DNA of 63,618 bases, counting the filler, from Licmophora abbreviata (Eukaryota), in assembly GCA_900291995.1 (NCBI GenBank). It is 5 parts of 5 records of this genome, joined end to end, with 100 filler letters (N's around TTAATTAATTAA, not from the genome) between each part and the next. Parts side by side here need not be neighbours in the genome. Positions count along the whole stretch, not along the records: positions 28,648 to 45,860 come from OLMU01003141.1; 4 more parts are not named here. One strand, given 5' to 3'. The number at the start of each line of letters is the position of its first letter. Position 1 is the stretch's first letter. Shown here one piece after another: positions 6,384-35,925 of the stretch. A program made the position numbers and the translations under genes. A model generated the notes under the pieces. That model was not told where the DNA came from and did not search any database. It saw nothing but the letters and a program-made list of their open reading frames with translations.

Positions 6384-9318
6384 CTACGACTTATCCTGAT
6401 GCGGCGAAGTGCTAGAATCGACGGGCCGTGGCGTCGAAGTTCGTGCATTTCGACTCCATTGATGTGGGAGTTGTAAGCTTTTGTTTGTGTCTGATGGAAG
6501 TGCTTGCAAAATTTCCGGGTGAAAATCGCGAAGCGTTTGGATCACACGCTCATCCACCTGCCCTAGTTTGCAACATCGTTCGAACGCCAAGCCTGCAAGT
6601 CGCGTTCTCTCCGTGGATTCTGCAAGCTGGCGTGCATACACTAACAGTAGCGTAGAGAAGAAAGCTGGGCTTGTGTTGATGTGCATAGTCTGCATCTTTT
6701 CCACTGCTTCGAGAGCAACGGAGAGGGCCCTTTGTCGATGTTGTTCGTTTCCCTTGGTATATGCGCAGGCATTCAGGAGCGCTGTAAAGGTGACAACATT
6801 TGGCTGTACGTCCGAATCCCCTTTGCTGCTAGCACGAAGCATGTCCTTCAAGAGTTCCCATGCGTGTTCCGCCTTGTCGCGTGCATGGCTTCGAGCGATG
6901 ATATGCATGACCGACGTGTACGTCACTGTGTCAGGTTTTGCCTTCTCATCACCTTCTGCATAACGCTCGTTCATCGTTTGCAGAATCTTCAGCGCCTTTT
7001 CGGCTGCTTTTGGCCTCTGGCTTCGCCAGTGGCAATTGATGGCTTGCGTGAATACTTCCTTACTGGGACGAACAGCTGCGTGTCCCGCAGACGCCTGCCG
7101 ATCCATAGACGCGATGATTTCGTCTGCACGAGCCCCCGCGTCGATCCGACCGCTGCGAGCCCACGCACCTAGCAATGCCGAATAGGCAAACTGGGTAGGA
7201 CGTTGGGCCTCCTCCTTACTTGTCTCATAGGCCGTTTGGAGCCGTTGAAAAACTGAAAGAGCTCGTTCGAACGAGTCTTTTTCGCCACTCTTTGCCCAAG
7301 CGCTTATCACCGACGCGTAACACCGCTCGTTCGGACTCATTTCTGGGTCAAGTAGAGCCTCTTTTTCCAAGTCAGCCAGCACTTGCTCAGCTTTTTCCGC
7401 CGCCCGACGAGTCCTTGGTTTAGATAGAGCAAATAGCAACGACGAATATGATAGCATGTCTGGTTTGAAAGCTTTGTCCTGGCGTGAGCGCCACAGCATT
7501 CTTTTCAGTACAAATTCTGTTTTCAGTGGCGCCTTTTGATGACTGCTACGGCCCCAGGCTGTAATCACTGCAGTGTAGTCGATTGGCGACGGTTTCCACT
7601 CTTCCTTCCCAGTAGATTTGTATGTTTCTTCTATCTTTTCCAGCAATTCAGTGGCCTTCCATGGTGCGGAGGGATGTGTACTGCGCGATAGTGCCAGGAT
7701 TACGAGGCTGAAATGGAGTGCACTGCGTTCCACGTTATTCGTATACATCTCTTTCAAAAGGACCTCTGCTTCCCGAGCAACGGCGTCCAGCCGATTGTGG
7801 GACTTGGAAAGTACTCGAAGAACTGTGGCATATGTGTACGCGTCCGGCTTGGCCGACGACTGCTTCATGCGCTCCCACCAGCTCATGATACGACGGTCTG
7901 GCATGACATCAAATACATGGTTCCAGATATGCGTTGTGATCGTAGGCGCCCCTACCGACAACTGCAATGGCGTTTGAGCTAAAAGCTCCAAAATGTGTTC
8001 AAACATCGATTCAACTCTGTTGCGGCGGCGCTCTACCGTCCACGCCCACAGGACGCGTTCGTACATTCTCAAGGGGATCCCGGTCGCACCCGCATCGAGG
8101 TGGCGCCGTTCCATGCGCCCGAGTAGATCCTCACAGCGTTCGGCAGGAGTGATACCGTCGGAGGATGCGGACAAGGTATATACTTTGATCCAACCGTCAA
8201 TGGCCAATTGATAGTGCTGCACAGTCGGCAAAGAAGGCATGTGTTCCGTGCACTTTTCGAGCTGAGAGACAAGAGCTTCCACTCGCTGCGCGGCCTCTAC
8301 GGCACGAAGTGCTTCATTGGTAAACAGCAGTCGGCGCATGGCAGCTTCGTAGGCGCGTGTCAACAACACATCGATTGCCTCGTCATACTCCGAAATCGAA
8401 TACTCCATTACAAGCTCCCGTGGATCCTTCTGAAACAACGAAAAGGACTTATCGGGCGACAAGATCTTTTGGAGATGCTGGAAACTCTCTTCCGTTACCA
8501 CCAAACAGTGCGCCTTGAGCAAAAAGTACAAATCCTCTGGCTGAGGAGCATCCAGCATTTGATAGGTTGGAATGACATTGTCCAAAAGCATGGACGTGAG
8601 TTGCTGCTGCGTCGTGTTCTTGCTCCGACTTAAGACTTCCATGACGAGCGCGTACGTCTTGACTTGAATGCCCATGTTCATTGGAGCGATCGATTTGGTG
8701 TGTTCGATATGGCTCAAAACTTCCGTAGACAGCTCGATTGCTTCTTGGACGTCAGAATGCCTTCGAAAGGCATCAAAGACCAAGTGGAAGGCGTCCAACG
8801 TAGGACGGTACTCAATGGTATTTCCCAACAAATGTCCCCAGTGATCGAGTACTGTGGCAGCGAGAAGGCCATCTCCATTCTGACGACACGCCTCTAGACA
8901 GATTTCGAATGGAGTCGTCGTGGTCGGTGTCTGGGGCGCTTTCAGTTTGAAACCAGTGCTTCAACAAGTTCACCATGAGTCTGTACGGAGGTGGTGTCGG
9001 AGAAGTTTGAAGGAGCTGTTCGAGGAGGGAGATGACTTCGCTGTCATCGACGGACGAAGCTTTCAGGAGCGTATCAGCTTGATATTGCAAAGTCTCATTA
9101 TTGGGAGAATCATGCACTGTACTCTGAAAGCGGTGCTGATGCAGTACTTGTGGGCGATGGATGAGACAGGCAAAGTCCATCCTCGCCATCACCGACGAGG
9201 CGGGACGGTGATGTACATCAGATTCCAGTAGTAGCTCCAGACCCGACCTAACTTCGAGTTTCGAGCGTCCTAAACGCCATCGGGATCTTCCAAGTGAAGC
9301 ATATGTTACTCGCTTCAT
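6384..9318 (-). CDS. Pentatricopeptide-repeat (PPR) protein, probably mitochondrial; one apparent frameshift; start uncertain
   Basis: Multiple 35-aa repeats (PDAYTYATVL, PSPIDYTAVITAW, PDMLSYSSLL, PNERCYASVISAW, PDTVTYTSVM, PNVVTFTALLNAC); Arg-rich N-terminus; ORFs 8812-9735 and 6384-8831 join by a 1-nt shift. Confidence 0.85.
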
Positions 9319-13144: not shown

Positions 13145-16100
13145 ATGAAGAGGGGTCTGTGCTTTCTGGGTCTCCTTTCTTGTGCGTCAGCATTCGTCGT
13201 TGTCCCGTCGGCTCATACTGCCTCCAAACATCACAATACTCGACCAACATTGTCAGCAACAGCCGACTCGGATAGAGCTTTGTCGTCATCTTCAGCAGCC
13301 CGTGCTGGAGAGAGTGGATTTTCCGTATTGAGGCAGCCCGTTCAGTGGGACCCAGAAGAAGTTCCGACCTTTGAGGTTCCAACCTCTCTCCGTGATGATA
13401 GTCAGAGCTACCAGGGCATGCTCCAACAAGACGAGTCGTGGTGGAACCAAGATAAGATGCAAAAGAAACGGGGCAACCAAGATAGAAAGGACATGCCAGT
13501 AAAACTGGAGTCGAGTTATGGCAGTAAGGATGAGTCACAGCAAGATGCTACATCATTCGAGGGTGGTTCTGGTCTCGATTTGTTCCAAAGAACACTGGAT
13601 ACCCTCGACTATCCATTCGTTCTGGAAGCGCTGCGTGACTTTTGTACCACCGTACCAGCACGGAACCTTGTCGAGGAGGCATTGGCACTCCATAAAGATA
13701 CAGATAGCGACTCAACCTTGGCGAACGCTAAAATACCCAAGGACCATCGCGATGCCTACCGTCCACTCACCGCCGGCAGCTACGAGGGCATCCAGGAGCG
13801 CTACGCAGCGGTGCGAGAAATGCAGCTCTTGATGGACGATACAAATGTTGATGCGGTGCTGCAGGGTGCTACTTACAAAAACCGACTGAACTACACAGTA
13901 TCACTCGGGCCGCCGCCATTGCAGGGATTGTCGTTTCCTCTCGTACAACTGCTCGAGTTTGCGGAAACTAGGTCTGCCGTGTTGGAAGGGCCTGAGCTGC
14001 TGGAGATTGCGGGTATGCTGGACACTATGGAAGACGTCTCGTTTTGGTCGAAGCGTGGGCTAGAACTACTCAGTGCTGATTTGGAATTCGTGGAACTGCC
14101 CAAGCTGGCTTCTCAGATTCGCGTTAATGCGACGTTGCAACAGCTCTTGCGCACAGCGTTTGACGAACAAGGGAAATTGAACGGAAAAACGTTTCCTACA
14201 TTAGGCACACTGCGAGCCAAGGTGCGAACCTATCAGACTGACATTCTTGAAACTGTCCAGACACTCTTGACCACGCCGTCCATCTCCAAGAAGCTGGCAT
14301 TAGAGAGCGGTGGACCGAAGTATGCCGAGGTCAATGGGCGTCTCGTCATTCCTCTGGATCAGAAGTTCGCTTCCAGTAACCTCGGTATAATTCATGATGC
14401 GTCACGCTCGGGCAAGACAATTTACGTGGAGCCGACGGAAATTGTCGGTCCCACGAACGAACTTCGGCAGATGGAAGCCGAACTTAGAGCCGAGGAAGCA
14501 CGCATCTGGAGGTTGCTGACGAACGCCGTCTTGGAGAACCGAGTCGCTCTGGAAACATCTGTAATGGCGGCAGGGCAGCTGGACCTAGTGATGGCACGCG
14601 TACTTCTCGGGCGCAAACTGGAGGGGGTTATTCCGGTAGTAGGACAAGACGGTATCATTTCGCTGCGAGACGCCAAGCATCCGGTACTACTGTTGCGAGA
14701 GTTGGACAATGTCGTGGGAAGTGACATCGATCTAGGAGCGAACGGAAATCAAGGCATGGTCCTTACGGGACCCAACTCGGGAGGTAAGACAGTGATTCTC
14801 AAATTATTGGGACTCGTGGCACTCATGGCACGGAATGGTATTCCGGTGCCAGCGCAAGGGTCATCAAGAGAATATACTCCACGGGTTGACTTCTTTTCGC
14901 CTGTCCTTGCTGACATTGGCGACTTGCAGAGTGTCGGAGGGGACTTGTCGACCTTTTCAGGCCACATGTTGGTGTGTCGAGAAGTGCTTGCCAATAGCGG
15001 CAATAGCGCTCTAGTACTGATGGACGAGCTTGGCAGTGGGACGGACCCTCGACAGGGAGTTGCCATTGCCCAGGCACTACTCGAGGCGTTGCTGGATACC
15101 GGGGCGCGTGTCGCAATCACGACCCACTACTTGGAACTCAAACAGCTGGCTTCGTCGGATAGTCGTTTTTCTGTTGGCGGAATGCAGTTTGTGAGTGGAC
15201 AGCCCACGTACAAGCTGCTCCCTGGGACGGTGGGAGAGTCCTTCGCCTTGGCTGTAGCCAAACGGTTGGAACTGCCTCCGTCTGTACTGTCTCGCGCGGA
15301 CGAGCTGTTGGACCAAGAGACGCGACAAATGGGAGACTTGCTCCGTGATTTAGAAGATCAAAAGGCGCTCGTGGACCAGCAAGTCCAGGAACTTGCGCAA
15401 AAGCGCCGAGAAATGGACGATCTGGAAGAGCAAATGAAGAAAGATAGCGCGAGACTCGAACAAAAGCAACTTGGTGCGCGTCGGGACGAAGCTCAAAAGT
15501 TTGCCAAGATGCTCGAAGACAAGGAGCGAGTTTTAGAGGGGGTCCTGGATAAGCTCAAGTCTGATCCCTCTCGAAAGGTCGTAGCCAAGAGCTGGGACGA
15601 CATTCGCTTTGTAAAACGAGATGCTCTCAACGAAGCAGAGAATATCCCAAGTGTGGTGGCCAGCAGAAAGAGAAACCAAGAAGCGGTTGAGCAGACATAC
15701 CGCGAGCTCGTGCCACTCGCCGAAATGCGGGAGAAGCCAGAATTGCAGGTTGGGGACAAACTCATGGTCTGCAAGAAGGGTGCACTCTTTGCAAAAGAGG
15801 CCGAGATACTACGTCTCGGCAATCGTCTACAAGTGCAAGTTTCGGGTATGGTCGTTCAATTGAAATTGAGCGAAGTTGCATTGCCCAACGCCAACGTTCA
15901 AGTACAAGATCGAAGGAAAACGGGGCAGCAGAGCGGTCCTAGAAATCGTGCCAAGGCAGCCGCCAAGGCGATCCAAGCGGAGCAGCAATCGAGAAGTACT
16001 GTTCCTCCTCCTTCTTCTTCTCCACAGAGCAATAGCGCTTCGTTGACAATACGAACTGATTCCAACACGATCGATGTTCGGGGCTGCAACTTGGAAGAAG

Positions 16101-16306
16101 CCAGGAGCAAGTGTCAAGGCAAGTTTAGCTCGTGCTTGATGAGTGGAAGATCAACCGTATACGTGTTGCACGGTCATGGATCGGCGGGTATTCTCAAGCG
16201 CAAGATTCGCGATTGGCTCAAGTCGGAACGGACAGTCGTCAAGCGATCGAGTCCCGCCGATGCTGCCGATGGAGGGGATGCTTTCACAAAAGTAGAATTG
16301 CGTTAG
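13145..16306 (+). CDS. mutS2: Plastid-targeted MutS2 (ATPase, coiled coil, KOW-like, Smr domain)
   Basis: Signal plus CASA-FVV; TGPNSGGKT, ADIGDLQS, LSTFSGHM, LMDELGSGTDP, TTHY; Smr TIDVRG...VLHGHGSAGILK. Confidence 0.95.
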   Translation: MKRGLCFLGLLSCASAFVVVPSAHTASKHHNTRPTLSATADSDRALSSSSAARAGESGFSVLRQPVQWDPEEVPTFEVPTSLRDDSQSYQGMLQQDESWWNQDKMQKKRGNQDRKDMPVKLESSYGSKDESQQDATSFEGGSGLDLFQRTLDTLDYPFVLEALRDFCTTVPARNLVEEALALHKDTDSDSTLANAKIPKDHRDAYRPLTAGSYEGIQERYAAVREMQLLMDDTNVDAVLQGATYKNRLNYTVSLGPPPLQGLSFPLVQLLEFAETRSAVLEGPELLEIAGMLDTMEDVSFWSKRGLELLSADLEFVELPKLASQIRVNATLQQLLRTAFDEQGKLNGKTFPTLGTLRAKVRTYQTDILETVQTLLTTPSISKKLALESGGPKYAEVNGRLVIPLDQKFASSNLGIIHDASRSGKTIYVEPTEIVGPTNELRQMEAELRAEEARIWRLLTNAVLENRVALETSVMAAGQLDLVMARVLLGRKLEGVIPVVGQDGIISLRDAKHPVLLLRELDNVVGSDIDLGANGNQGMVLTGPNSGGKTVILKLLGLVALMARNGIPVPAQGSSREYTPRVDFFSPVLADIGDLQSVGGDLSTFSGHMLVCREVLANSGNSALVLMDELGSGTDPRQGVAIAQALLEALLDTGARVAITTHYLELKQLASSDSRFSVGGMQFVSGQPTYKLLPGTVGESFALAVAKRLELPPSVLSRADELLDQETRQMGDLLRDLEDQKALVDQQVQELAQKRREMDDLEEQMKKDSARLEQKQLGARRDEAQKFAKMLEDKERVLEGVLDKLKSDPSRKVVAKSWDDIRFVKRDALNEAENIPSVVASRKRNQEAVEQTYRELVPLAEMREKPELQVGDKLMVCKKGALFAKEAEILRLGNRLQVQVSGMVVQLKLSEVALPNANVQVQDRRKTGQQSGPRNRAKAAAKAIQAEQQSRSTVPPPSSSPQSNSASLTIRTDSNTIDVRGCNLEEARSKCQGKFSSCLMSGRSTVYVLHGHGSAGILKRKIRDWLKSERTVVKRSSPADAADGGDAFTKVELR

Positions 16307-24984: not shown

Positions 24985-26318
24985 CTATGACTGTTGACAT
25001 TGGACCCCGCCTTCTTCTCCCTCATCTGAGTCGTACGCGGAATCATGGGAATGTATGCCACCCTTTCCGAAGCTCTTCACGTCAGCATGCTCCAAATGAC
25101 ACACTTCATGCTCGTCGTCGTCGACGATATCAACAGAAGGGTCCGGAAGTGCCTTTCTCAGGATTTCTAGAGTCTTGCGATCAAGCTGGCCGTCCTGTGG
25201 AAACTCGACTCGAAAGAGTACGAACATGTTTCCCTTTACAAAGGGATTTCCGTGCGATGGCATACCCTCGTTGGGAATCATTTTCACAAAGGGTGTCGAA
25301 GCATTGGTTTCAGCCCTGATGACTTCGCCGGGTTTCGACTTGATGACGACTTTTCGCCCATCCAGATGCGTAACTAACCACTCAAACCCACATAGCGCCT
25401 CGTTCAGACTTACAGTCTTGGTGACGAGCAGATCAGCTCCCTTTCTCTTGAACATATCGTGATCTTTCTCCTGAATGACAATGTTGACATTGCCAGCTTC
25501 AATGTTGGGCTTCTCATCGGCCATCCCACGAAAGGCAATCTTCTGCTTGTGCCTCATTCCTTTTTCAATGAGAACCTCCAGAACTTTTCTCTCGCGTTTC
25601 TTTTTGCAGAGATAGCCTTCCCCTCCGCAGTCGGCACACCGACGCTGAAGCTGCTGAACCATTCCCAATGCAATCTGACGAAGTTCCATCACAACACCCT
25701 GCCCATCGCACGAAGTACACATGGTAGGCTTGTCTACCATGACCTGTCGGTTTATGGCCAGCTTGACTGTCTTGCCATTATACAGGTCCTCCAATGACAC
25801 CTTGAGTTGATGGTTCACGTCTTCTCCACGCCGCGGACCCGCTGACGAACGACGCCTAGATCCGCCAAAGAACATGCTCATCAGATCATCTTGGTTCATT
25901 CCTCCTGGTCCACCTTCATTCGCGACTCCCTCCAGACCGTGCGTGTCGTACTTGGCTCGCTTCTCGGCGTCGCTAAGAATTTCATACGCGGCCGAAATTT
26001 CCTTGAATTTGTGTTCGTCGCCGCCCTTGTCGGGGTGGTGTACAATGGCTAGCTTGCGATAGGCCTTTTTGATTTCCTTTTGATCGCAGGTTTTGGAAAC
26101 CTAAAATGAAAAGACGACGAGAATGGGAAACACGTCGTAAGACCAGGTTTAGGCAAACAGGAATGAACGAGTCGCCCAGGCGCGCTTGAACGCAGACTCA
26201 CCCCCAAAGTCTGGTAAAGCTTTGTCGTATCCACGTCTCTGGCCGCCGATCGACGACGACTGCCTCCTCCCCCATGAGAGCGGGCAAAATGCTCAAACGG
26301 ATCTCCTCCAAAGAACAT
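24985..26318 (-). CDS. DNAJA: Class A J-protein (DNAJA/Ydj1-like Hsp40), paralogue 2, 2 exons
   Basis: HHPDKGG; CxxCxGxG twice; C-terminal CQQS; intron 26101-26201. Confidence 0.95.
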
Positions 26319-26658: not shown

Positions 26659-28501
26659 CTACCTCAACATGGGCGCGTGAGACTCAAACGGATCCTCGGC
26701 AGCTTGGGAGAGCGGGACCGTATTGGGCTGACGCGTCACGGCCAGGACACGTTCCCACGTTCGACCACGCGGGTTCATGGACCGAGGAGACGTCGCTACC
26801 AATTCGGGAATCGGAAGGAAGGTCATCCGATTGTTGCAGAGTCCGACTGAGAAGCCCGTGTATCCTGCCATGGCCCCGTGAACTGCATTCTGCGCGAGCT
26901 GCATGCAGTACAGACTATCGGCGGCGTTGGCTGGGATGGAGCGAATCATGTATGAGGGATCAATGTATCTGAGAGTGGGTCACATGAGACAAGAGGAGAG
27001 AAACCTGGTGAGCAAAAATGCTGGTCTTAACGAGCCCTAAACATCATTGTACACAGCACGACGTACTTGACAGTTGCAGTCTCTCCTTGCTCTTCGAAAT
27101 GCTTTTCGACCTGGCTCTTCATGAACTCGCCAATCTTAGGTAGCTTTTTGTTTCCACTGGCATCCGTCTCCGCAGATGTGCCCAGAATCTCCTCACCGGC
27201 ACCCTCCGCAACAACAATGACAGCCCATCCTTGCTGCTTGACACGTCTCCTAATATGCGGCAAGCACCCGAGAGGGCCATCCAGGACTGTGGGAACCTCC
27301 GGGACCAGGCACAAGTCTACATCCCCCGACGACATGACGGCATGGACAGCAATGAAACCGGCGCTGCGCCCCATGAGCTTCACAATACCCACGCCGTTGG
27401 GCAAGTTGCACTTCGCCTCCGTCTTGGCAGAATGAATTGAGACTTGTGCCGCTTCGACGGCTGAACTGAAACCGAACGAGTGGTCAATGTAGTCGACATC
27501 GTTATCAATCGTCTTGGGAATACCAGCCACAGACACATTGAGGCCCTATTACAGAGGAGGGGAGTGAGAGAGGTGTCTCGAGTGAGAATTACATGTCGAG
27601 CACAATGGGGGCAACACCTGGGGACTTCACTTACTCGCTCCATACACCCTTCGTGAATCCGAAAAGCGCCACGGTGGGTTCCATCGCCTCCAATCACAAA
27701 GAGCTGCTTAATCTTATGCTTGGAAAGAAAGGCAATAATCTTGTCTAGATCGAATCCCCCACGCGAAGACCCCAAAATGGTGCCGCCCATGTGATGGATG
27801 TTTTCCACATTCTCACACGTTAGAATCAAGGGCGGCAGTTCACTGTCATAGAAACCTCTATACCCACCGCGGATGCCATAGACCTTGCCACCAATGCCAT
27901 ACAAGTTGTAGAGAGTCTTGGTAATTTCTCGCACCACATTGTTCAGACCGGGGCACAGTCCACCACACGTCACAATGGCCGCCGATACTCGTTGAGGATC
28001 AAAGTGCAGATATTCCCTAGGCCCCGCCCTCACGTAGGCTCTCGAGATCGTCGGGTGCGTCGGTTTGCGCACTAAATCTGCCAAGATGCATTCATGGGAC
28101 GTAATCAGCTTATTGTAGGATGCCGCATGGTGTTCCATGTCTTTGGGGAGAATGCTCGTGTCTTTGTCGTGCTTGCTGCGATGCCGCAAATAATCTTGCG
28201 CGCTCTCGCTCAAACACGTCATGCGATTCACTGCGTCTCCGGCTTCGCTCTCAAAGCGATGGGAGAGATGTTCGACTTCCCAAAGGTAGACTTGGGAGAT
28301 GCTAATGTCATCGATTTTGACTCCCGCAGGTGCGTCCTGATCTTTGGGCTGAGAAGCTTTCAGTTCTTGTCGGGCATGGTATGCGTCCAGTCTCGCCTTT
28401 TGCTGTTTCTTGCGGTGGTATCGATTCGTCAAGGCAAAGGTTGCGGCGGCACTGGCGCACACGGCCACAACGAGCGTCGTTGTCGAAGTCGTCGACGACA
28501 T
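26659..28501 (-). CDS. PFK: ATP-dependent 6-phosphofructokinase (plant/protist PfkA type), 3 exons
   Basis: AAIVTCGGLCPGLN, GGTILGSSRGG, IGGDGT, PKTIDND, MGRSAG, YIDPSYMIR; introns 27546-27634 and 26969-27066. Confidence 0.95.
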
Positions 28502-29036: not shown

Positions 29037-29378
29037 TCACTCTCCTTTTCGATAGTTAAGCTGTCGCTCTTCCAACATTTTCATTCGCTCGTGCAGTTCT
29101 CGATCATTGCCACTTTCATATCTCTGTTTCATTGCTCGATACTTTTTAAGCTGAACAACTCCCATCATTTCTCGGACAAAATGTCGCCCCTTGGCCACCG
29201 CAGCACGGATCTCGCGTTCGCAAGACGAGGACTTTGGAGCGTCGATACACGAAGGTGCACTGCTTGGGTCCTGTATCGCTCGTTTCCACGTAGTTCTCAC
29301 GTAGTCCAGTCCAAGCGGGTAGTCCCGTCCTACTAGCACGACGCGCTTGTACAAGTCTCTCACAAGGGGATGCATCAT
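29037..29378 (-). CDS. LYRM5: LYR-motif protein, ETF regulatory factor 1-like
   Basis: LYKRVVLVGRDYPLG and LKKYRAMKQRY match LYRM5/ETFRF1. Confidence 0.85.
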   Translation of the reverse strand: MMHPLVRDLYKRVVLVGRDYPLGLDYVRTTWKRAIQDPSSAPSCIDAPKSSSCEREIRAAVAKGRHFVREMMGVVQLKKYRAMKQRYESGNDRELHERMKMLEERQLNYRKGE

Positions 29379-30076: not shown

Positions 30077-32482
30077 CTAAGACTCCTTCGCCATGCCAAA
30101 CACAAGCTTGAACTCCTCCCAGGACAAACTGCCACTCTTGCTTAGATCCATCGAGTTAAGCAACTTGCTGATATCCTCTTCCGTGTAGGATGGATCAAAA
30201 TCCAACATGACACGTCGGAGATGGTCAAGCTTTATAGTGCCGGACTTGTGCGTATCGATCGCATTGAATGCGGCACGCAGATCTTCCTCCTTCTCGGGGA
30301 ATGCTCGCTTGGTTGCGGCACAGATGGCCTTCTTGAAGTCTCGACGGAGAATGATATCGTGGAAGCTGTTGTCCAACGCAGGGTTCTTCTTCAAAAGCTT
30401 GTGCATGTCCTTTGAAGTCAAAACTCCCATCTTGCAAGTTTCACCGACGCATCTTGCAGTCACATTGTAGGGCTTGCCCGCGTAGTAGGCGGCATGTTCG
30501 CCAGTCATTTCGCCTTGATGCAAGCTTCGCACCTTGTGGCCGTCCCTAAAGATATCGACGTTGCCTTCTTCCACGATGTACAAAATATCCCCCTTGCTAC
30601 CTTGTTCAAAAATTACGTCGCCCTCGCGGTAGCTCTCGTGGGTCATGTTCTTCTGTAAGGCCAAAATCGAGTTCGCCCGCTCACGGTTCCTCATCCGGTC
30701 CGTCTCGGCCATGGTAAGCGCCACCTCTCTGTCACTGTTGACGTACTTCTCGAAGTAATCACGAGATATTTCAATCACGTGAACCGGAGTCTTGCAAGCA
30801 ACAGTATTGGAGTACGTCTTCTTTTCGCCAGTGAGCGCGTCTTCTCCAAAGAAGTCGCCTGCACCGCGCTCCTTGACAAAGCCTTCTGATGAGGAGACTT
30901 CGACCGAACCACTGTTGATGAAGAACATTGAATTCCCTTCTTCCCCTTCCTTGCATAGAACGTGACCCTTAGGAAGGTATAGGTTGGCCATGTTGTCCGA
31001 GAGCACGTCCGAGAGCTCCGAAAATGTCAAGCGAGCATCGGCGCCAACAAAGGATGTGTCGCCGTGCAGCTCCTTGGTGGACACGTAGCCAAGATTCTTC
31101 TGGTCCAACTGACGAAATGCTGATTCCAACATGCACATGTTGGTCCTCGCACTTTCGCTGTTGGCGCCGGCGGCTGCTGCGGCCATGCTGCTTTGCATCA
31201 ACATGGTACGAAAGAAGTGTTTGCCGACGCTCGTCTTGTGACGGTTGTATGTTCGGAGTCGGAGGTCGCTCTGAGGAATCTTGCGACTGCGCGCTGTTTC
31301 TCCTCGGACCCACGGGTGTTCCAGGAGTTGACTGGCCGTCAGTCTCTCACTGGGATGCATTTTCATGAGCCCCTCCACAAGGTCCTTGGCATCCTCAGAA
31401 ACGTGCTTGAATTCGCTAAGCGGTGGAATCTCACCAGAGATGACGCGATCCTCAATCTCCTGGGTCGTAGCGCCTCCCTCTACATCAAAAGGGTGGGTTC
31501 CGGTAAGCATGACGTACAAAATGACCCCTAAACTCCACATGTCAAAACTGGGTGCTATGTGCGCATGCTCGGTCTTGTAGACCTTCAAAACTTCCGGGGG
31601 ACAGTAGGCGGGTGTACTAGCTGTACCGCGATGGCGATGATCGTCCTTTTCCTCCGGGCCATGCACCTTGTGGGCACATCCAAAATCAACAAGCTGAATG
31701 ACGGCATTGTTCGAGTCCTTTGAAGTCAGCATGAGATTCTCTGGTTTCAAATCGCTGTGAACAATGCCAACACCATGCAAAAAAGCCAATGCAGAGGCGA
31801 CCTGTCGAATGATTCTGGCGGCATCGGCTTCGCTGTAGGGCCCTTTCGCGCAGAGTTCATCAAACATTTCCCCGCCCTTGATGAGATCCAACACGAGATA
31901 GTAGCTGTCGTCGCCATTGTGTTCTACAAAGTGTTCCCGAAGCGTATTGATGTTTGGATGTCCTCCTGCATCGTGAATGTGAAAGAGGGCGTCCATTTCA
32001 CGTTGAAATGTGGCAAAATTGGTACACTCCTTCGGGATCTTCTTCACAGCGACCGACTGTCCTGTGTTGCGATCGATCGCCTGATAGACGGAACCAAAGG
32101 TGCCGAGACCGACGGGCTCCTCCCAATCAACTTTATACTTGCTATCGACTCCCTCCTTCTCGGCGGTAGTTTCGATGAGTTCAACCGTCTTCTGTCGTGT
32201 CAGGGTGCCCCTCTGCGTCTGTCTGGGAGGCACCATCAAGACGCCAAAGAAACAAGCTGTCGTCGACACGGGAAGGACGCCGGGCCACCTGTTTGTGTTG
32301 CCTGGACAAAGAACATCCTCTTCCGCGAGCTGCTGATGCATGGCCGCCGCCGCTGTCATCACTGCTACCGAAGCGACGGCCCATGAGCATGTCGTCTTCG
32401 AACTCTGAGGAGAAAATGAAGAAAATCTTCTTCGGTTTCTTCTCAAGAGCACTCTGGCCGCTCGATTGCTTCTAGCAAACAT
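30077..32482 (-). CDS. CaMK/CDPK-like kinase fused to EF-hands and two cNMP-binding domains; likely mitochondrial presequence
   Basis: GLGTFG, VAVKK, HSDLKPEN, DFG, DMWSLG; GDFFGEDAL and GEMTGEHA cNMP folds; EF-hand DLSKSGSLSWEE; MFARSNRAARVLLRRNRRRFSS. Confidence 0.9.
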   Translation of the reverse strand: MFARSNRAARVLLRRNRRRFSSFSPQSSKTTCSWAVASVAVMTAAAAMHQQLAEEDVLCPGNTNRWPGVLPVSTTACFFGVLMVPPRQTQRGTLTRQKTVELIETTAEKEGVDSKYKVDWEEPVGLGTFGSVYQAIDRNTGQSVAVKKIPKECTNFATFQREMDALFHIHDAGGHPNINTLREHFVEHNGDDSYYLVLDLIKGGEMFDELCAKGPYSEADAARIIRQVASALAFLHGVGIVHSDLKPENLMLTSKDSNNAVIQLVDFGCAHKVHGPEEKDDHRHRGTASTPAYCPPEVLKVYKTEHAHIAPSFDMWSLGVILYVMLTGTHPFDVEGGATTQEIEDRVISGEIPPLSEFKHVSEDAKDLVEGLMKMHPSERLTASQLLEHPWVRGETARSRKIPQSDLRLRTYNRHKTSVGKHFFRTMLMQSSMAAAAAGANSESARTNMCMLESAFRQLDQKNLGYVSTKELHGDTSFVGADARLTFSELSDVLSDNMANLYLPKGHVLCKEGEEGNSMFFINSGSVEVSSSEGFVKERGAGDFFGEDALTGEKKTYSNTVACKTPVHVIEISRDYFEKYVNSDREVALTMAETDRMRNRERANSILALQKNMTHESYREGDVIFEQGSKGDILYIVEEGNVDIFRDGHKVRSLHQGEMTGEHAAYYAGKPYNVTARCVGETCKMGVLTSKDMHKLLKKNPALDNSFHDIILRRDFKKAICAATKRAFPEKEEDLRAAFNAIDTHKSGTIKLDHLRRVMLDFDPSYTEEDISKLLNSMDLSKSGSLSWEEFKLVFGMAKES

Positions 32483-33253
32483 TGTTCTGTGACTGATTGT
32501 ACATTGCCTGATCGCAACGCCAAGAGGGGATTGATCTGCCAAACTGCCGTGCTGCGGCGTTCTTTCAAAAGCGCTTCAAAGATTGAGATGCATCGAGTCG
32601 CGTCATCGGTGATAGATCCAACAAGAGCGCAAAACATACACTTCTTCCGGAACATCTGCATTCGGAAAGAAATTCTCGACCGGCGTAGAGTTCCCTTTTG
32701 CCGGAATTTCTAACACAACCCATCATGCGCTACAGCATTTCGCCGGGAGCATCTGTGTTATTCCGTTTTTACGAAATAGAAACTCGGGGGAGTGGATACC
32801 CACTTTTTCAGTATAAATTGTGCTCGTAATCGAAGATCATATATTGGCGTCACGGTGACATCACTCTCTCCGCTGAAGTCTCCGTCTGGCCACAGTACGT
32901 AAGCATGCACGGAATGTGTCCCAGTCCCGTAACGTGAAATCAAAGAAGGCGGGAAAGAGATCGGAACGGGACTTGATATTCAGATCAATATTGGCCAAAC
33001 AGCCGTTGCAAATTTTATTGTTAAATACAATGACGAAGTCCACATAAGGGTCAAACTTCACATCACAGAATTAATACATAGATAACGACTCGAAGTGACA
33101 CAATCAAAGAGCATGAAGAAGTATCATTTAGAAGGGGCAATTGAAGAGACTTCTCATTTTCCATCGTACGTACTCGAGTTTCCGCTTGTACGCTTCAAAT
33201 AAGTTTTCTCTTCCTAACGTTGGAGATTGCGGATGATGTTTCCAAGACAAAAA

Positions 33254-33288
33254 ATTGGCGCAAAAGCCGTTGGTTTCGCGCGTTCAAA
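33254..33288. promoter_or_regulatory. Cluster of E2F-like, MSA-like and CHR-like motifs
   Basis: ATTGGCGC 33254, CCGTTGG (reverse CCAACGG) 33267, TTTCGCGC 33274, TTCAAA 33283. Confidence 0.4.
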
Positions 33289-33409
33289 CGTGTTACGGCC
33301 TCACACATCATGTCACGCTGTCACGCCACAATTACGACCAAGAGCGGCCAAGACGGGAAACCCACACAATACAAGGAGAACTCCGACCAGTCGGCACCTC
33401 TTCTCCGCC

Positions 33410-33859
33410 ATGACTACTCCAACGGACTATCGGTTCGCTGCCGCAAATAGCCCCCCGCGGCGTGAACCGGCGATGAGCTTCGAGGACGAGCGGCAGGTAC
33501 CGCGGCATCAGCCACAAATGGCACTAGTGGAGCCTTTGACCACGAACTACCAATGGGTCGAATCTTGTATGAAGGCTGCGTCGGCCTGCGACAAGTTCTT
33601 TAACTGTGCATATGTCAAGAAACAGCTGGAAGATGAGTGGAAAGAAGAACGGCGCCTCTCTGATAGCGCCATGGGACGTCTGTGGAGTCGTATGGATTAC
33701 AGCTTCGACGTCGAACTGCACCGACAAATCTTGTTCGAGGGAGCGGACCAAAAGCAACCCCTCCACGAAGAGGATCTAGACCAACGCTACAACTATCATG
33801 TGCCAGACGATTCCTCCGGACAAGGAGAGCACTCGGGGAGTCCCACTTCTTCCGAGTAA
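33410..33859 (+). CDS. Hypothetical protein (149 aa)
   Basis: ORF with protein-like composition between the kinase and PP2A genes; no family recognised. Confidence 0.5.
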   Translation: MTTPTDYRFAAANSPPRREPAMSFEDERQVPRHQPQMALVEPLTTNYQWVESCMKAASACDKFFNCAYVKKQLEDEWKEERRLSDSAMGRLWSRMDYSFDVELHRQILFEGADQKQPLHEEDLDQRYNYHVPDDSSGQGEHSGSPTSSE

Positions 33860-34128: not shown

Positions 34129-35925
34129 TTAAAAGGGGGCTTCACTAGATGTGGCCAACCCCGTCCCGATGACCGGACTAAATTCTGTACCTTCTCCTTC
34201 TTCCTCGTCGTCCACCGTAACCCAATCCACCTCCATGGCCTCTTCTTCCCGGGCTTCTTCCTCCATTGCCAATCGGTTGTAATCGATACAGGCAAACCTA
34301 TCCCAGTCGGTCTCGAATTCATCTTCGCGTTTTTGCCGTTCCGCAAATGGATCCCGCTGTTCAAACATTAGATACTTGTTAAGGTTGAAAAGTGCGTCAA
34401 AGAGGGCGCCCGACACTTGGGCGCATTCCTGCTGCAAAAAGTCTTCTGCCATGAGATGATCAGAATTAGAGGGTTTGATCATGTCCATCATTTGGCACAA
34501 CATGTCTTCAAATGGCACAATCTCATGGCCCATACACTGCATTCGGTGAAGCTGTACGGCATAGAAAGATCGCATTTCCATATTGTTCAACTTGCCGTCT
34601 CCATCCACATCCACGCACGAAAACCAGTACCGCACCGACACTTCATTTGCTTTGTCTTCCTCGCTCAACATGAAAAAGATAAAATCCTCGTAGCTGAGAT
34701 ACTCTCGATTCGTCGCGGCCGCGCCGCTCTCATTCGCAAACGGTCTCGGCGCCGCTTCAAAGATACGATCGACAATCATATGACTGAGACTGTGGTCGCC
34801 ATACTTTAACAAGTCATCCCGCGTGATGCGGTAGTCTCGGTCGTGATCCAATTCCCAGAACCGACAGTACAAGACGTAAAAGTGCTCGTAGGAAAAGTAG
34901 CGAGTCACCTTGTTGATGTCTTCCTCTTCGTCCACTCCCTGGAAAGCGTCGAGCAGATCGGAACGCCGAATCTGACGGGATGTGATACGACCCGAATGGC
35001 AGCGATTGACCGAATAAAATATGCGTGTTATGACCGTCACGGCGTACTTTTCTTGAAACTCGGCATGAGTGGACAAGAATTCCAAGCCCTATCAAACAAC
35101 AGTAGGAGCGAGTGAGCACAGCCTGGCAGACCTTCACAGCAAAGACACCTCACGCTATCCCGCACGCACCGGATGATCACTGAGAAGTTCTTTTATGTAA
35201 GGAAGGAAGTCATCACGGTCAATGTAGTCGTGATCTGGCTGCTTCAAAAGCCGAAAGAAACGTTCTGGTGCGTCATACGGTTCCATTTCAGTCACCCAAA
35301 ACCGTTCCAGCATGTCAACTGTGACAACATCCATGTCAGCGACACGGCCCGATTCTGGAAGATTGTTCCAGAGCTGTAAAATACGCTTGTACAAAGGACC
35401 ATTAAAGAAGGTCGGGAAGTGACATATATCCTTGGTAAAACGCACAAACTGGTCCAGCGGAAGAAACTTTAGTTCGGCGCTACCAACAGCCTGGTTGGAT
35501 TCCGCGTTCTCTGGAGATATGGCCGGAGGATCCTGCCCGACTTCATTGAATAATGCATAGACCTGGTCCCTGACACACTTGCTGACTCCGCTAGTACTTT
35601 CCTCTCGTGGCAACCACGTCTCGCAAGGATCAGACTCGAGCGCCTCCGTCCCACCATTCATGCTGCTACTACTGCTGCTCTTCTTGGTTCTTCTCGGATA
35701 AGGCCGTTTGGATGGATAGAACGGAGGAATCACACCCCGCGGTGAGTTTGTCGTATCTTCGTCCTCCGCATGCTTGGATGCGCGAGTGGGAGACGATGGC
35801 GATGTTGTGTCCTCGTGATGATGCTTGGCACGATAACTCTCCGCCAAGTTTTGGACATTTTCATAGACTGTATCGTTCCCCAACCAGGTCACGAGCAGCT
35901 CGTCCATTTTGATAGCAGCTGCCAT
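34129..35925 (-). CDS. PP2A regulatory subunit B'' (PR72 family, EF-hand), 2 exons
   Basis: HPGLEFL, YFSYEHFYVLYCRFWELD, FMLSEEDK, YWFSCVDVDGDG, TDWDRFA; intron 35089-35169. Confidence 0.95.

Follow-up and report, generated by a model that had tools for sequence, protein, structure and literature searches.

The stretch of DNA analysed here (the window) comprises 63,618 nucleotides, filler included, from the pennate diatom Licmophora abbreviata (assembly GCA_900291995.1; five parts of five records joined end to end), and the part derived from OLMU01003141.1 carries, on the minus strand, a gene for a protein kinase of 801 residues that we refer to as P0001. We find that P0001 is a derived pennate-diatom variant within a widespread, annotated and experimentally untouched ochrophyte kinase family, whose members join a CaMK-type kinase to two cyclic-nucleotide-binding (CNB) domains and a C-terminal EF-hand pair. 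In P0001, the Arg that normally binds the phosphate of cyclic nucleotides is replaced by Tyr in both CNB domains. To our mind, the chances are evenly balanced that the protein is no classical cyclic AMP (cAMP) or cyclic GMP (cGMP) receptor, but combines a latched second CNB site with Ca2+ as its input.

From its N- to its C-terminus, P0001 consists of a basic N-terminus, a weak hydrophobic segment, the kinase, a helix of the autoregulatory type, an EF-hand remnant, CNB-A, CNB-B and an EF-hand pair. Pfam matched Pkinase (residues 121-392, E 1.6e-60), cNMP_binding in two stretches (E 1.5e-34) and EF-hand_7 (residues 732-792, E 2.6e-13), and with E values of 1e-60 and 1e-34 the domain assignment is far beyond chance. 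The gene (30077..32482) is a single exon, formed by one uninterrupted open reading frame (ORF) of 801 amino acids plus stop, and the start codon is the first ATG downstream of an in-frame stop. This agrees with a preliminary description of the same DNA, which had reported an intronless ORF and named no strand, and all sequence features listed there are present.

The same description had noted that the domain order fits neither plant CDPKs nor PKG. Our homologue searches show that the architecture is not a one-off: it belongs to a large ochrophyte family spanning diatoms, Triparma, brown algae and Chrysoparadoxa. Of 7997 candidates scored, 1417 matched at E<=1e-3, and the top 120 all have the same Pfam set; the named sources included Nitzschia, Amphora, Seminavis, Entomoneis, Epithemia, Cylindrotheca, Attheya, Pseudo-nitzschia and Thalassiosira. 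Among the homologue matches listed, none was identical to P0001; the best full-length match (P0002) reached 58% identity and partial proteins 72-79%. A representative library of 1.84 billion proteins returned 3911 matches at E<=1e-30, including full-architecture relatives at 31-36% identity, and a Chrysoparadoxa protein (P0168) used as query added Ectocarpus, Pylaiella and Triparma together with the centric diatoms Corethron, Rhizosolenia and Odontella. Identity to P0001 is 41-58% over the full length for diatom members and ~33% for the relatives from Chrysoparadoxa, brown algae and Triparma. What the family has in common with P0001 is the domain order, a non-RD H-x-D catalytic loop, an L-x-R-x-x-T motif, a Cys, the junction helix, the tandem CNB domains and the C-terminal EF pair. 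P0001 itself shows this order, a non-RD loop of the form H-[GSACT]-D-L-K-P-E-N and, upstream, both the Cys and L-x-R-x-x-T; that it lacks the family-majority cassette Arg at both sites marks, as judged from the tree described below, a subclade and not an exclusion from the family.

Kinases with this domain content are already mentioned in print. The available part of a kelp CDPK survey (PMC12335766) lists SjCDPK13 as a kinase with two EF-hands and two CNMP domains, in an order that is not stated, and with orthologues in other brown algae; that part holds no functional work on the protein. SjCDPK13 may belong to the ochrophyte kinase-CNB-EF family. According to excerpts of a Phytophthora kinome study (PMC3019232), cNMP-binding domains occur in CAMK kinases, and one T. 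pseudonana protein is a 'CDPK-like kinase with two EF-hands'. Besides, a 2026 survey of P. tricornutum CDPKs placed the two-EF-hand CDPK-like proteins Pt25067 and Pt1875 in separate diatom clades and mentioned cyclic-nucleotide domains 0 times (PMC13187674); these two may be family members whose CNB domains went unremarked. In the literature outside subscription journals and supplements, we found no functional or other experimental study of the kinase-CNB-EF architecture. In databases, relatives bear automatically assigned names such as 'cGMP-dependent protein kinase', 'serine/threonine protein kinase' and 'MAP kinase-activated protein kinase 2 (fragment)'.

The exchange of Arg for Tyr in both cyclic-nucleotide (cNMP) folds, in the motifs KTYSNTV (residues 555-561) and KPYNVTA (670-676), was confirmed by the family alignment and by phmmer/HMMER alignments to Plasmodium PKG, in which Y557 falls on the phosphate-binding Arg of CNB-A and Y672 on that of CNB-B. 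The family alignment consisted of P0001 and the best 120 of the 1417 relatives, and divides into 24 rows with Tyr at site B (Tyr-type) and 97 other rows. Over its 121 rows, the Arg is present in 94 at site A and in 96 at site B, and Tyr takes its place in 17 and 24, respectively, with His at site A in seven more. Atypical cNMP domains, if understood as a trait of the whole family, are therefore not what the alignment supports: most members keep the Arg, and the term applies to the subclade of P0001 only. This subclade differs from the remaining family by Tyr at site B (24/121), Tyr or His at site A, a rebuilt cassette B and a degenerate third EF loop.

To place the Tyr-type proteins, we computed a tree (IQ-TREE quick mode, LG+G4) from which the cassette columns had been removed. 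It held 76 rows, namely all 20 full-length Tyr-type proteins, 52 Arg-type proteins (every second of 104 full-length ones) and, as outgroups, four distant sequences; P0003, P0004, P0006 and P0077, which are partial, did not enter the tree. All 20 Tyr-type proteins (20/20) were monophyletic, with a support of 100 in the Shimodaira-Hasegawa-like approximate likelihood ratio test (SH-aLRT), and nested within Arg-type sequences, which indicates a single derived origin. Four of the 24 Tyr-clade members have a named source (Nitzschia inconspicua, Nitzschia sp. Nitz4, a Bacillariaceae metagenome-assembled genome and Amphora), and all of these are pennate diatoms; N. inconspicua and Amphora are classified in the Bacillariophycidae. 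Most of the clade consists of metagenome or transcriptome proteins.

The two sites have fared differently within this clade. Measured as mean pairwise identity within each group, cassette B is the most conserved region of the Tyr clade (0.78, vs 0.58 among Arg-type proteins), the kinase is intermediate (0.55 vs 0.63) and cassette A is the least conserved region (0.39 vs 0.68). The drop at cassette A means that site A lost constraint, and the sequences portray site B as rebuilt in the Tyr clade and then held fixed. In the Tyr clade, cassette B reads GEHAA[YF][YH]..KPYNVTA, and the changes flanking the Arg site are S664A, L665A, one added residue and T674V. The aromatic and His residues of P0001 in this stretch are His663, Tyr666, Tyr667 and Tyr672. 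Both cassettes retain the Gly-Glu that contacts the ribose (E547 in 117/121 and E662 in 115/121 rows), and P0001 also retains the Ala of G-E-x-A (G546-E-D-A549 and G661-E-H-A664). One partial clade member from a metagenome, P0004, has a 28-residue insertion within cassette B, which resembles a retained intron or an error in the gene model.

The regulatory half was also examined by structure prediction. An AlphaFold2 (AF2) model of residues 400-801, built with a 97-row alignment, had a predicted local distance difference test score (pLDDT) of 92.4 and a predicted TM-score (pTM) of 0.87, and it shows a long helix, EF-like elements, two CNB barrels each with a cassette helix, a C-helix and a four-helix EF pair. 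Foldseek matched it best to the tandem CNB domains of PKG I (3shr_A, E 2.3e-14) and to 6byr_B and 5kbf (E ~1e-14), and further to PKA RI-alpha, to the Plasmodium and Toxoplasma PKA regulatory subunits (PKA-R), and to the cAMP-independent PKA-R of trypanosomes (6hyq_B, E 3.3e-12; 6flo_B); since these matches extend over only a portion of a model with several domains, TM-scores stayed low (0.2-0.4). P0001 thus has the tandem CNB-A/CNB-B fold of PKG and PKA-R (3shr, 6byr_B, 5kbf), but differs from them in that its CNB domains lie C-terminal to the kinase, the kinase is of the CaMK and not the AGC type, the cassette Arg is missing at both sites and an EF pair is appended.

That the kinase is CaMK/CDPK-like had been proposed before and is supported. 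Its best sequence matches in the PDB are apicomplexan CDPK1, CaMKI and CaMKII (CDPK/CaMK 2.7e-50), with PKG scoring lower (2.8e-44), and the Pfam scan of P0001 shows no AGC C-terminal tail, which speaks against an AGC-type catalytic domain. With its usual catalytic motifs complete, it is predicted to be a catalytically competent CaMK-group Ser/Thr kinase. The catalytic loop HSDLKPEN is indeed non-RD, as the preliminary description had pointed out, but this is not special to P0001, since it applies to the whole family: position 243 (Ser in P0001) is occupied by G in 85, S in 13, A in 10, T in 5 and C in 4 rows, with Arg in 0/117 non-gap rows, and distant full-architecture relatives have HAD, HGD or HCD. 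Activation-loop phosphorylation is thus suggested not to be the switch in these kinases.

The full-length AF2 model (pLDDT 83.5, pTM 0.73; residues 1-92 below pLDDT 50) has CaMKII, CASK and DAPK structures as its best 50 structural matches. These align with Z scores of 30-33 over ranges that extend to model residues 411-429, as exemplified by S. rosetta CaMKII (5ig1_A; Z 32.7, root-mean-square deviation (rmsd) 2.1, 283 aligned residues). Residues 3..320 of DAPK in complex with calmodulin (2x0g_A) align to model residues 106..429 and so reach into the post-kinase helix, and autoinhibited CaMKII (2bdw_A) superposes with a TMt of 0.82 and an rmsd of 2.8. The sequence alignment to CDPK1 (3igo) spans residues 124-472 and runs into the first EF element. 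By structural and sequence resemblance, P0001 therefore has the CDPK succession of a CaMK-group kinase and an autoinhibitory junction; it shares the CaMK-group fold and the position of the post-kinase helix with plant and apicomplexan CDPKs, CaMKII and DAPK. It differs from these kinases by the non-RD HSD loop, by EF-hands that are split by two CNB domains instead of forming a contiguous four-EF-hand calmodulin-like domain, by one canonical loop instead of four and, in comparison with CDPKs, by a presequence-like N-terminal extension in place of an acylation motif. Of note, the post-kinase helix bears, in the Tyr clade, an R-x-x-T element (R414...T417) within RHKTSV (residues 414-419; residues 415-419 lie at 31226-31240, minus strand), and the position of residue 417 is Ser or Thr in 121/121 aligned rows; it presumably lies within the autoregulatory segment, as does CaMKII's regulatory Thr.

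As to the EF-hands, the preliminary description had placed the CNB domains between two calmodulin lobes, which is a fair account of the order: the kinase is followed by a degenerate, N-lobe-like remnant, the two CNB domains and a pair that aligns to the C-lobe. The last 77 residues of P0001 (query 6-68) align to ~81-143 of calmodulin, in its C-lobe, with E ~4e-13. The first of the two proposed EF pairs stood in part. In the AF2 model, short helix-loop-helix elements with two paired beta bridges are present at residues 451-494, but the Pfam EF matches to residues 452-473 are all sub-threshold (EF-hand_6, E 8.3e-4, 19.3 bits vs a cut-off of 25). In Triparma, the corresponding segment matches EF-hand_7 as a pair over the entire profile, just under the cut-off of 30 (E 6.9e-6, 26.8 bits). 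Triparma (P0278), Chrysoparadoxa (P0168) and Ectocarpus (P0266) have a longer insert between the junction helix and CNB-A, which has kept an EF-hand-pair score and is shortened in diatoms. We assessed the loops with the PROSITE pattern PS00018. The remnant loop matches it in 2/24 Tyr-clade and 7/97 other members, loop 3 in 1/24 vs 38/97, and loop 4 in 13/24 vs 41/97. Loop 4 is the only match within P0001, just as had been claimed for its last EF loop.

The identity of the protein, its architecture, the clade structure and the substitutions are established by the sequence data; autoinhibition, a loss or change of ligand, a dependence on Ca2+ and the localisation are inferred. The mitochondrial location, coincidence detection and non-canonical ligand suggested in the preliminary description are likewise inferences. 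In the family at large, the post-kinase helix would hold the kinase off, by analogy with CaMKII, DAPK and CDPK, and the downstream CNB-EF module would set the release of this helix. As the presumed autoinhibitory element lies directly upstream of CNB-A, like the inhibitory segment of PKA-R and PKG, the state of the CNB-EF module should decide on release. For Arg-type members, the joint input would be cyclic-nucleotide occupancy of the two CNB pockets and Ca2+ bound by the C-terminal EF pair, itself carried by the C-helix of CNB-B. In the clade of P0001, the canonical clamp has been dismantled by two Arg-to-Tyr exchanges, a freely evolving cassette A, a rebuilt cassette B and an EF loop 3 stripped of its Ca2+ ligands. 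We favour a site B that would be a self-filled or latched pocket, with a static role in the autoinhibitory scaffold; the only canonical loop (residues 779-790), by binding Ca2+, would then provide the remaining small-molecule input, and the kinase would be either Ca2+-regulated or constitutively poised.

A precedent for such a latch is CNB-C of Plasmodium PKG, an aromatic-occluded domain inside a kinase, in which, according to the available part of PMC6628679, the pocket is occupied by Y363, H373, F371 and F359 and measurements gave no cGMP binding. Like CNB-C, the CNB domains of P0001 reside within a kinase polypeptide, lack the Arg and have aromatic or His residues in the cassette, and HMMER aligns 'qpfkht' of CNB-C to 'kpynvt' of P0001. 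Unlike P0001, which keeps Gly-Glu, CNB-C has also lost the cassette Glu (Asp361; excerpts of PMC6628679), and in Plasmodium PKG one of four CNB domains is altered, but both are in P0001. Several points count against a latched site B. The Gly-Glu kept in both cassettes would be needless in a dead pocket and favours some ribose-containing ligand; the Tyr hydroxyl can hydrogen-bond a phosphate, which would allow weak cNMP binding; the strong conservation of cassette B is explained equally well by a new ligand and by a latch; and the pattern-perfect fourth EF loop is kept by only 13 of the 24 Tyr-clade members.

Two other views of the ligand have to be weighed against the latch. CNB-B, and perhaps CNB-A, might bind a molecule other than cAMP or cGMP, e.g. 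a nucleoside or another ribose metabolite, and thereby release the helix with or without Ca2+. We hold this to be rather unlikely, even though the new and fixed signature of the clade's most conserved region and the retained Gly-Glu point in this direction and a precedent exists: in the accessible portion of PMC10959531, the kinetoplastid PKA-R, which lost the cassette Arg, takes inosine and guanosine as nanomolar-affinity ligands in place of cAMP, and Foldseek matched P0001 to trypanosome PKA-R structures, among others. Both systems are kinase-coupled tandem CNB domains in which, as far as the available parts of PMC10959531 and PMC6440977 go, the Arg of both sites has given way to an uncharged polar residue. 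However, the second kinetoplastid determinant, the exchange of Ala202/326 for Glu, which in these sources contacts the ribose 3'/5'-OH and clashes with the phosphate, is absent from P0001, where Ala549 and Ala664 are kept; P0001 likewise offers no evidence for an alpha-D lid, and lineage and architecture are unrelated. Moreover, cassette A is decaying, the four aromatic and His residues of cassette B recall the network that occludes the non-binding CNB-C, and our analysis indicates no candidate ligand. That kinase-coupled CNB domains were re-tuned from cAMP/cGMP to another cellular ligand twice independently, first known from kinetoplastid PKA and now in the pennate-diatom Tyr clade, and that this ligand is read together with Ca2+ by a kinase anchored at mitochondria or located inside them, e.g. 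one facing the intermembrane space, strikes us as a long shot.

Conversely, P0001 could be an ordinary cNMP- and Ca2+-regulated kinase, in which Tyr and the backbone amides of the cassette would hold the cyclic phosphate, the clade differing in affinity or in its preference for cAMP or cGMP. The intact CNB fold, cassette helix and Gly-Glu (pLDDT >90), the nesting of the Tyr clade among canonical Arg-bearing paralogues and the automatic database name 'cGMP-dependent protein kinase' of relatives are in line with this, yet both sites are changed, the neighbours of the Arg position are rebuilt (S664A, L665A, the added residue and T674V), and cassette A has lost constraint. In PKA, the cassette Arg neutralises the charge of the phosphate, as stated in the available part of PMC10959531. 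We regard an ordinary receptor as unlikely and keep to a latched site B with a Ca2+ input as the favoured account.

The N-terminus of P0001 bears on where this kinase would act. The Arg-rich N-terminus and the short hydrophobic segment named in the preliminary description were both recovered: the first 52 residues comprise 9 Lys or Arg, 0 Asp or Glu, 11 Ser or Thr and 10 Ala, the first acidic residue being residue 54, and WAVASVAVMTAAAAM occupies residues 34-48, with a mean Kyte-Doolittle hydropathy of 1.77 over 15 residues and 1.42 over 19, in keeping with a weak membrane segment at best. Mitochondrial presequences are typically basic, acid-free and rich in Ser/Thr and Ala, with an R-x-F|S arrangement; one such arrangement is found at residues 18-21. 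The hydrophobic moment of residues 1-18 is 0.64. A survey of the 94 of 121 sequences with at least 45 residues before Arg96 and a Met start revealed a net basic N-flank in 82/94, a 15-residue stretch with a hydropathy of at least 1.6 in 63/94 (median start 20.5) and a net acidic C-flank in 69/94. Because this design recurs across the family, the extension is real and selected and not a start-codon artefact.

Most likely, the N-terminus targets or anchors P0001 to a membrane-bounded compartment, as its composition suggests. Our best guess for this compartment is the mitochondrion, at roughly even odds; the composition would suit a presequence with a weak stop-transfer segment behind it, and the kinase would then come to lie at the inner membrane, on the side of the intermembrane space, or within the matrix. 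Speaking against this, the hydrophobic segment is weak (1.42 over 19 residues), AF2 gives no structure for residues 1-92, and the amphipathic moment is only modestly above shuffled sequences, 57/1000 of which reached it. It is about equally probable that the N-terminus is an endoplasmic-reticulum-type signal anchor, another kind of tether (to endomembranes, plasma membrane or plastid envelope) or has no role in targeting. The family pattern of a basic flank, a hydrophobic segment and an acidic flank would also suit a type II signal anchor, and the stretch is weakly hydrophobic; besides, the extension is absent from the Ectocarpus (brown-algal) and Chrysoparadoxa models, which start ~20 residues before the kinase. 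A type II anchor, however, would leave a Ca2+/nucleotide-regulated kinase in the lumen, which would be unusual, and the composition of the first 52 residues together with R-x-F|S is typical of presequences. Plastid targeting is unlikely: the hydrophobic segment gives way to acidic residues, and an adjoining signal-peptide-plus-Phe motif is missing. Between the N-terminal segment and the kinase, LTRQKTV has an L-x-R-x-x-T motif that we take to suit the CaMK substrate consensus, which makes T99 a candidate (auto)phosphorylation site. The idea that this motif occupies the active site as a pseudosubstrate is unsupported, since in the model it begins helix 96-106, next to the kinase. Table 1 lists the positions of these and the remaining features.

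Table 1. Features of P0001, in order along the protein, with their positions in the window. Counts refer to non-gap rows of the family alignment.
Feature	Residues	Position	Strand	Basis and remarks
Whole ORF, P0001	1-801	30077..32482	-	homologues align from ~residue 30 to 801 (P0007: query 30-801)
Basic N-terminus without acidic residues (8 Arg + 1 Lys), resembling a presequence	1-32	32387..32482	-	composition
Ala-rich, moderately hydrophobic segment SWAVASVAVMTAAAAM	33-48	32339..32386	-	hydropathy; acidic residues from 54
Conserved Cys between anchor and kinase	77	32252..32254	-	C in 17/17 (Tyr clade) and 61/69 (Arg-type)
LTRQKTV, conserved L-x-R-x-x-T-hydrophobic	94-100	32183..32203	-	R96 in 94/105, T99 in 100/105
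CaMK-group kinase domain	121-392	31307..32122	-	GLGTFGSV, VAVK, DFG, TPAYCPPE present; Pfam, sequence and structure matches
Catalytic loop HSDLKPEN (non-RD)	242-249	31736..31759	-	family alignment
Long post-kinase helix, in place of the CaMKII/DAPK/CDPK autoregulatory (junction) segment	405-438	31169..31270	-	AF2 models (helix 407-437), structural matches
Degenerate EF remnant; loop 460-471 DQKNLGYVSTKE	451-497	30992..31132	-	family has K/R at loop position 5; sub-threshold Pfam, AF2 model
CNB-A beta-barrel	498-590	30713..30991	-	Pfam, AF2 model, Foldseek, phmmer
Cassette A FGEDALTGEKKTYSNTVA, Tyr557 for Arg	545-562	30797..30850	-	alignment, phmmer
CNB-B beta-barrel	614-700	30383..30643	-	Pfam, AF2 model, Foldseek, phmmer
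Cassette B GEHAAYYAGKPYNVTAR, Tyr672 for Arg, aromatic-rich clade signature	661-677	30452..30502	-	alignment, phmmer
Long C-helix joining CNB-B to EF pair, RRDFKKA conserved	701-724	30311..30382	-	alignment, AF2 models
EF-hand pair, calmodulin-C-lobe-like	732-795	30098..30289	-	Pfam; calmodulin alignment
EF loop 3 DTHKSGTIKLDH	743-754	30221..30256	-	degenerate: His at positions 3 and 12
EF loop 4 DLSKSGSLSWEE	779-790	30113..30148	-	sole canonical Ca2+ loop; pattern match spans 779-791 DLSKSGSLSWEEF

The surroundings of the gene are those of a compact nuclear genome, and the P0001 gene is a nuclear gene of a pennate diatom. The GC content is ~0.50-0.55 across the window, and by Pfam the other ORFs encode ordinary eukaryotic proteins with DnaJ_C, PFK, MutS_V+Smr, ArfGap, PPR or Mur-ligase-like domains. 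These include a MutS_V+Smr protein of 1053 amino acids (13145-16306, plus strand), a PPR protein of 765 amino acids (6384-8681, minus), a DnaJ C-terminal/CXXCXGXG region with no J domain in the same ORF (24985-25899, minus), a partial PFK domain (27380-28501, minus) and an ORF that ends in EF-hand_13 (35155-35925, minus); the ORFs with partial domains are probably exons of spliced genes. A Pfam scan of the neighbouring ORFs at 29037-29378 and 33233-33859 matched no family, so that the gene context was uninformative.

In diatoms, CO2 sensing, responses to pheromones and nutrient signalling draw on cAMP, cGMP and Ca2+, and to our knowledge the kinases that read these messengers are largely unknown. 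A CaMK-type kinase that unites two cNMP folds and EF-hands in one polypeptide is an obvious candidate for an integrator of such signals. Within this family, the Tyr clade is a natural experiment, in which the phosphate clamp was lost at both sites and one rebuilt pocket came under strong constraint, and its comparison with the Arg-bearing paralogues could reveal how CNB domains get repurposed. Should the N-terminus truly target mitochondria, P0001 would point to regulated phosphorylation in this diatom organelle; and if the protein were indeed a re-tuned mitochondrial sensor, it would represent a previously unknown node of metabolite and Ca2+ signalling in diatom mitochondria.

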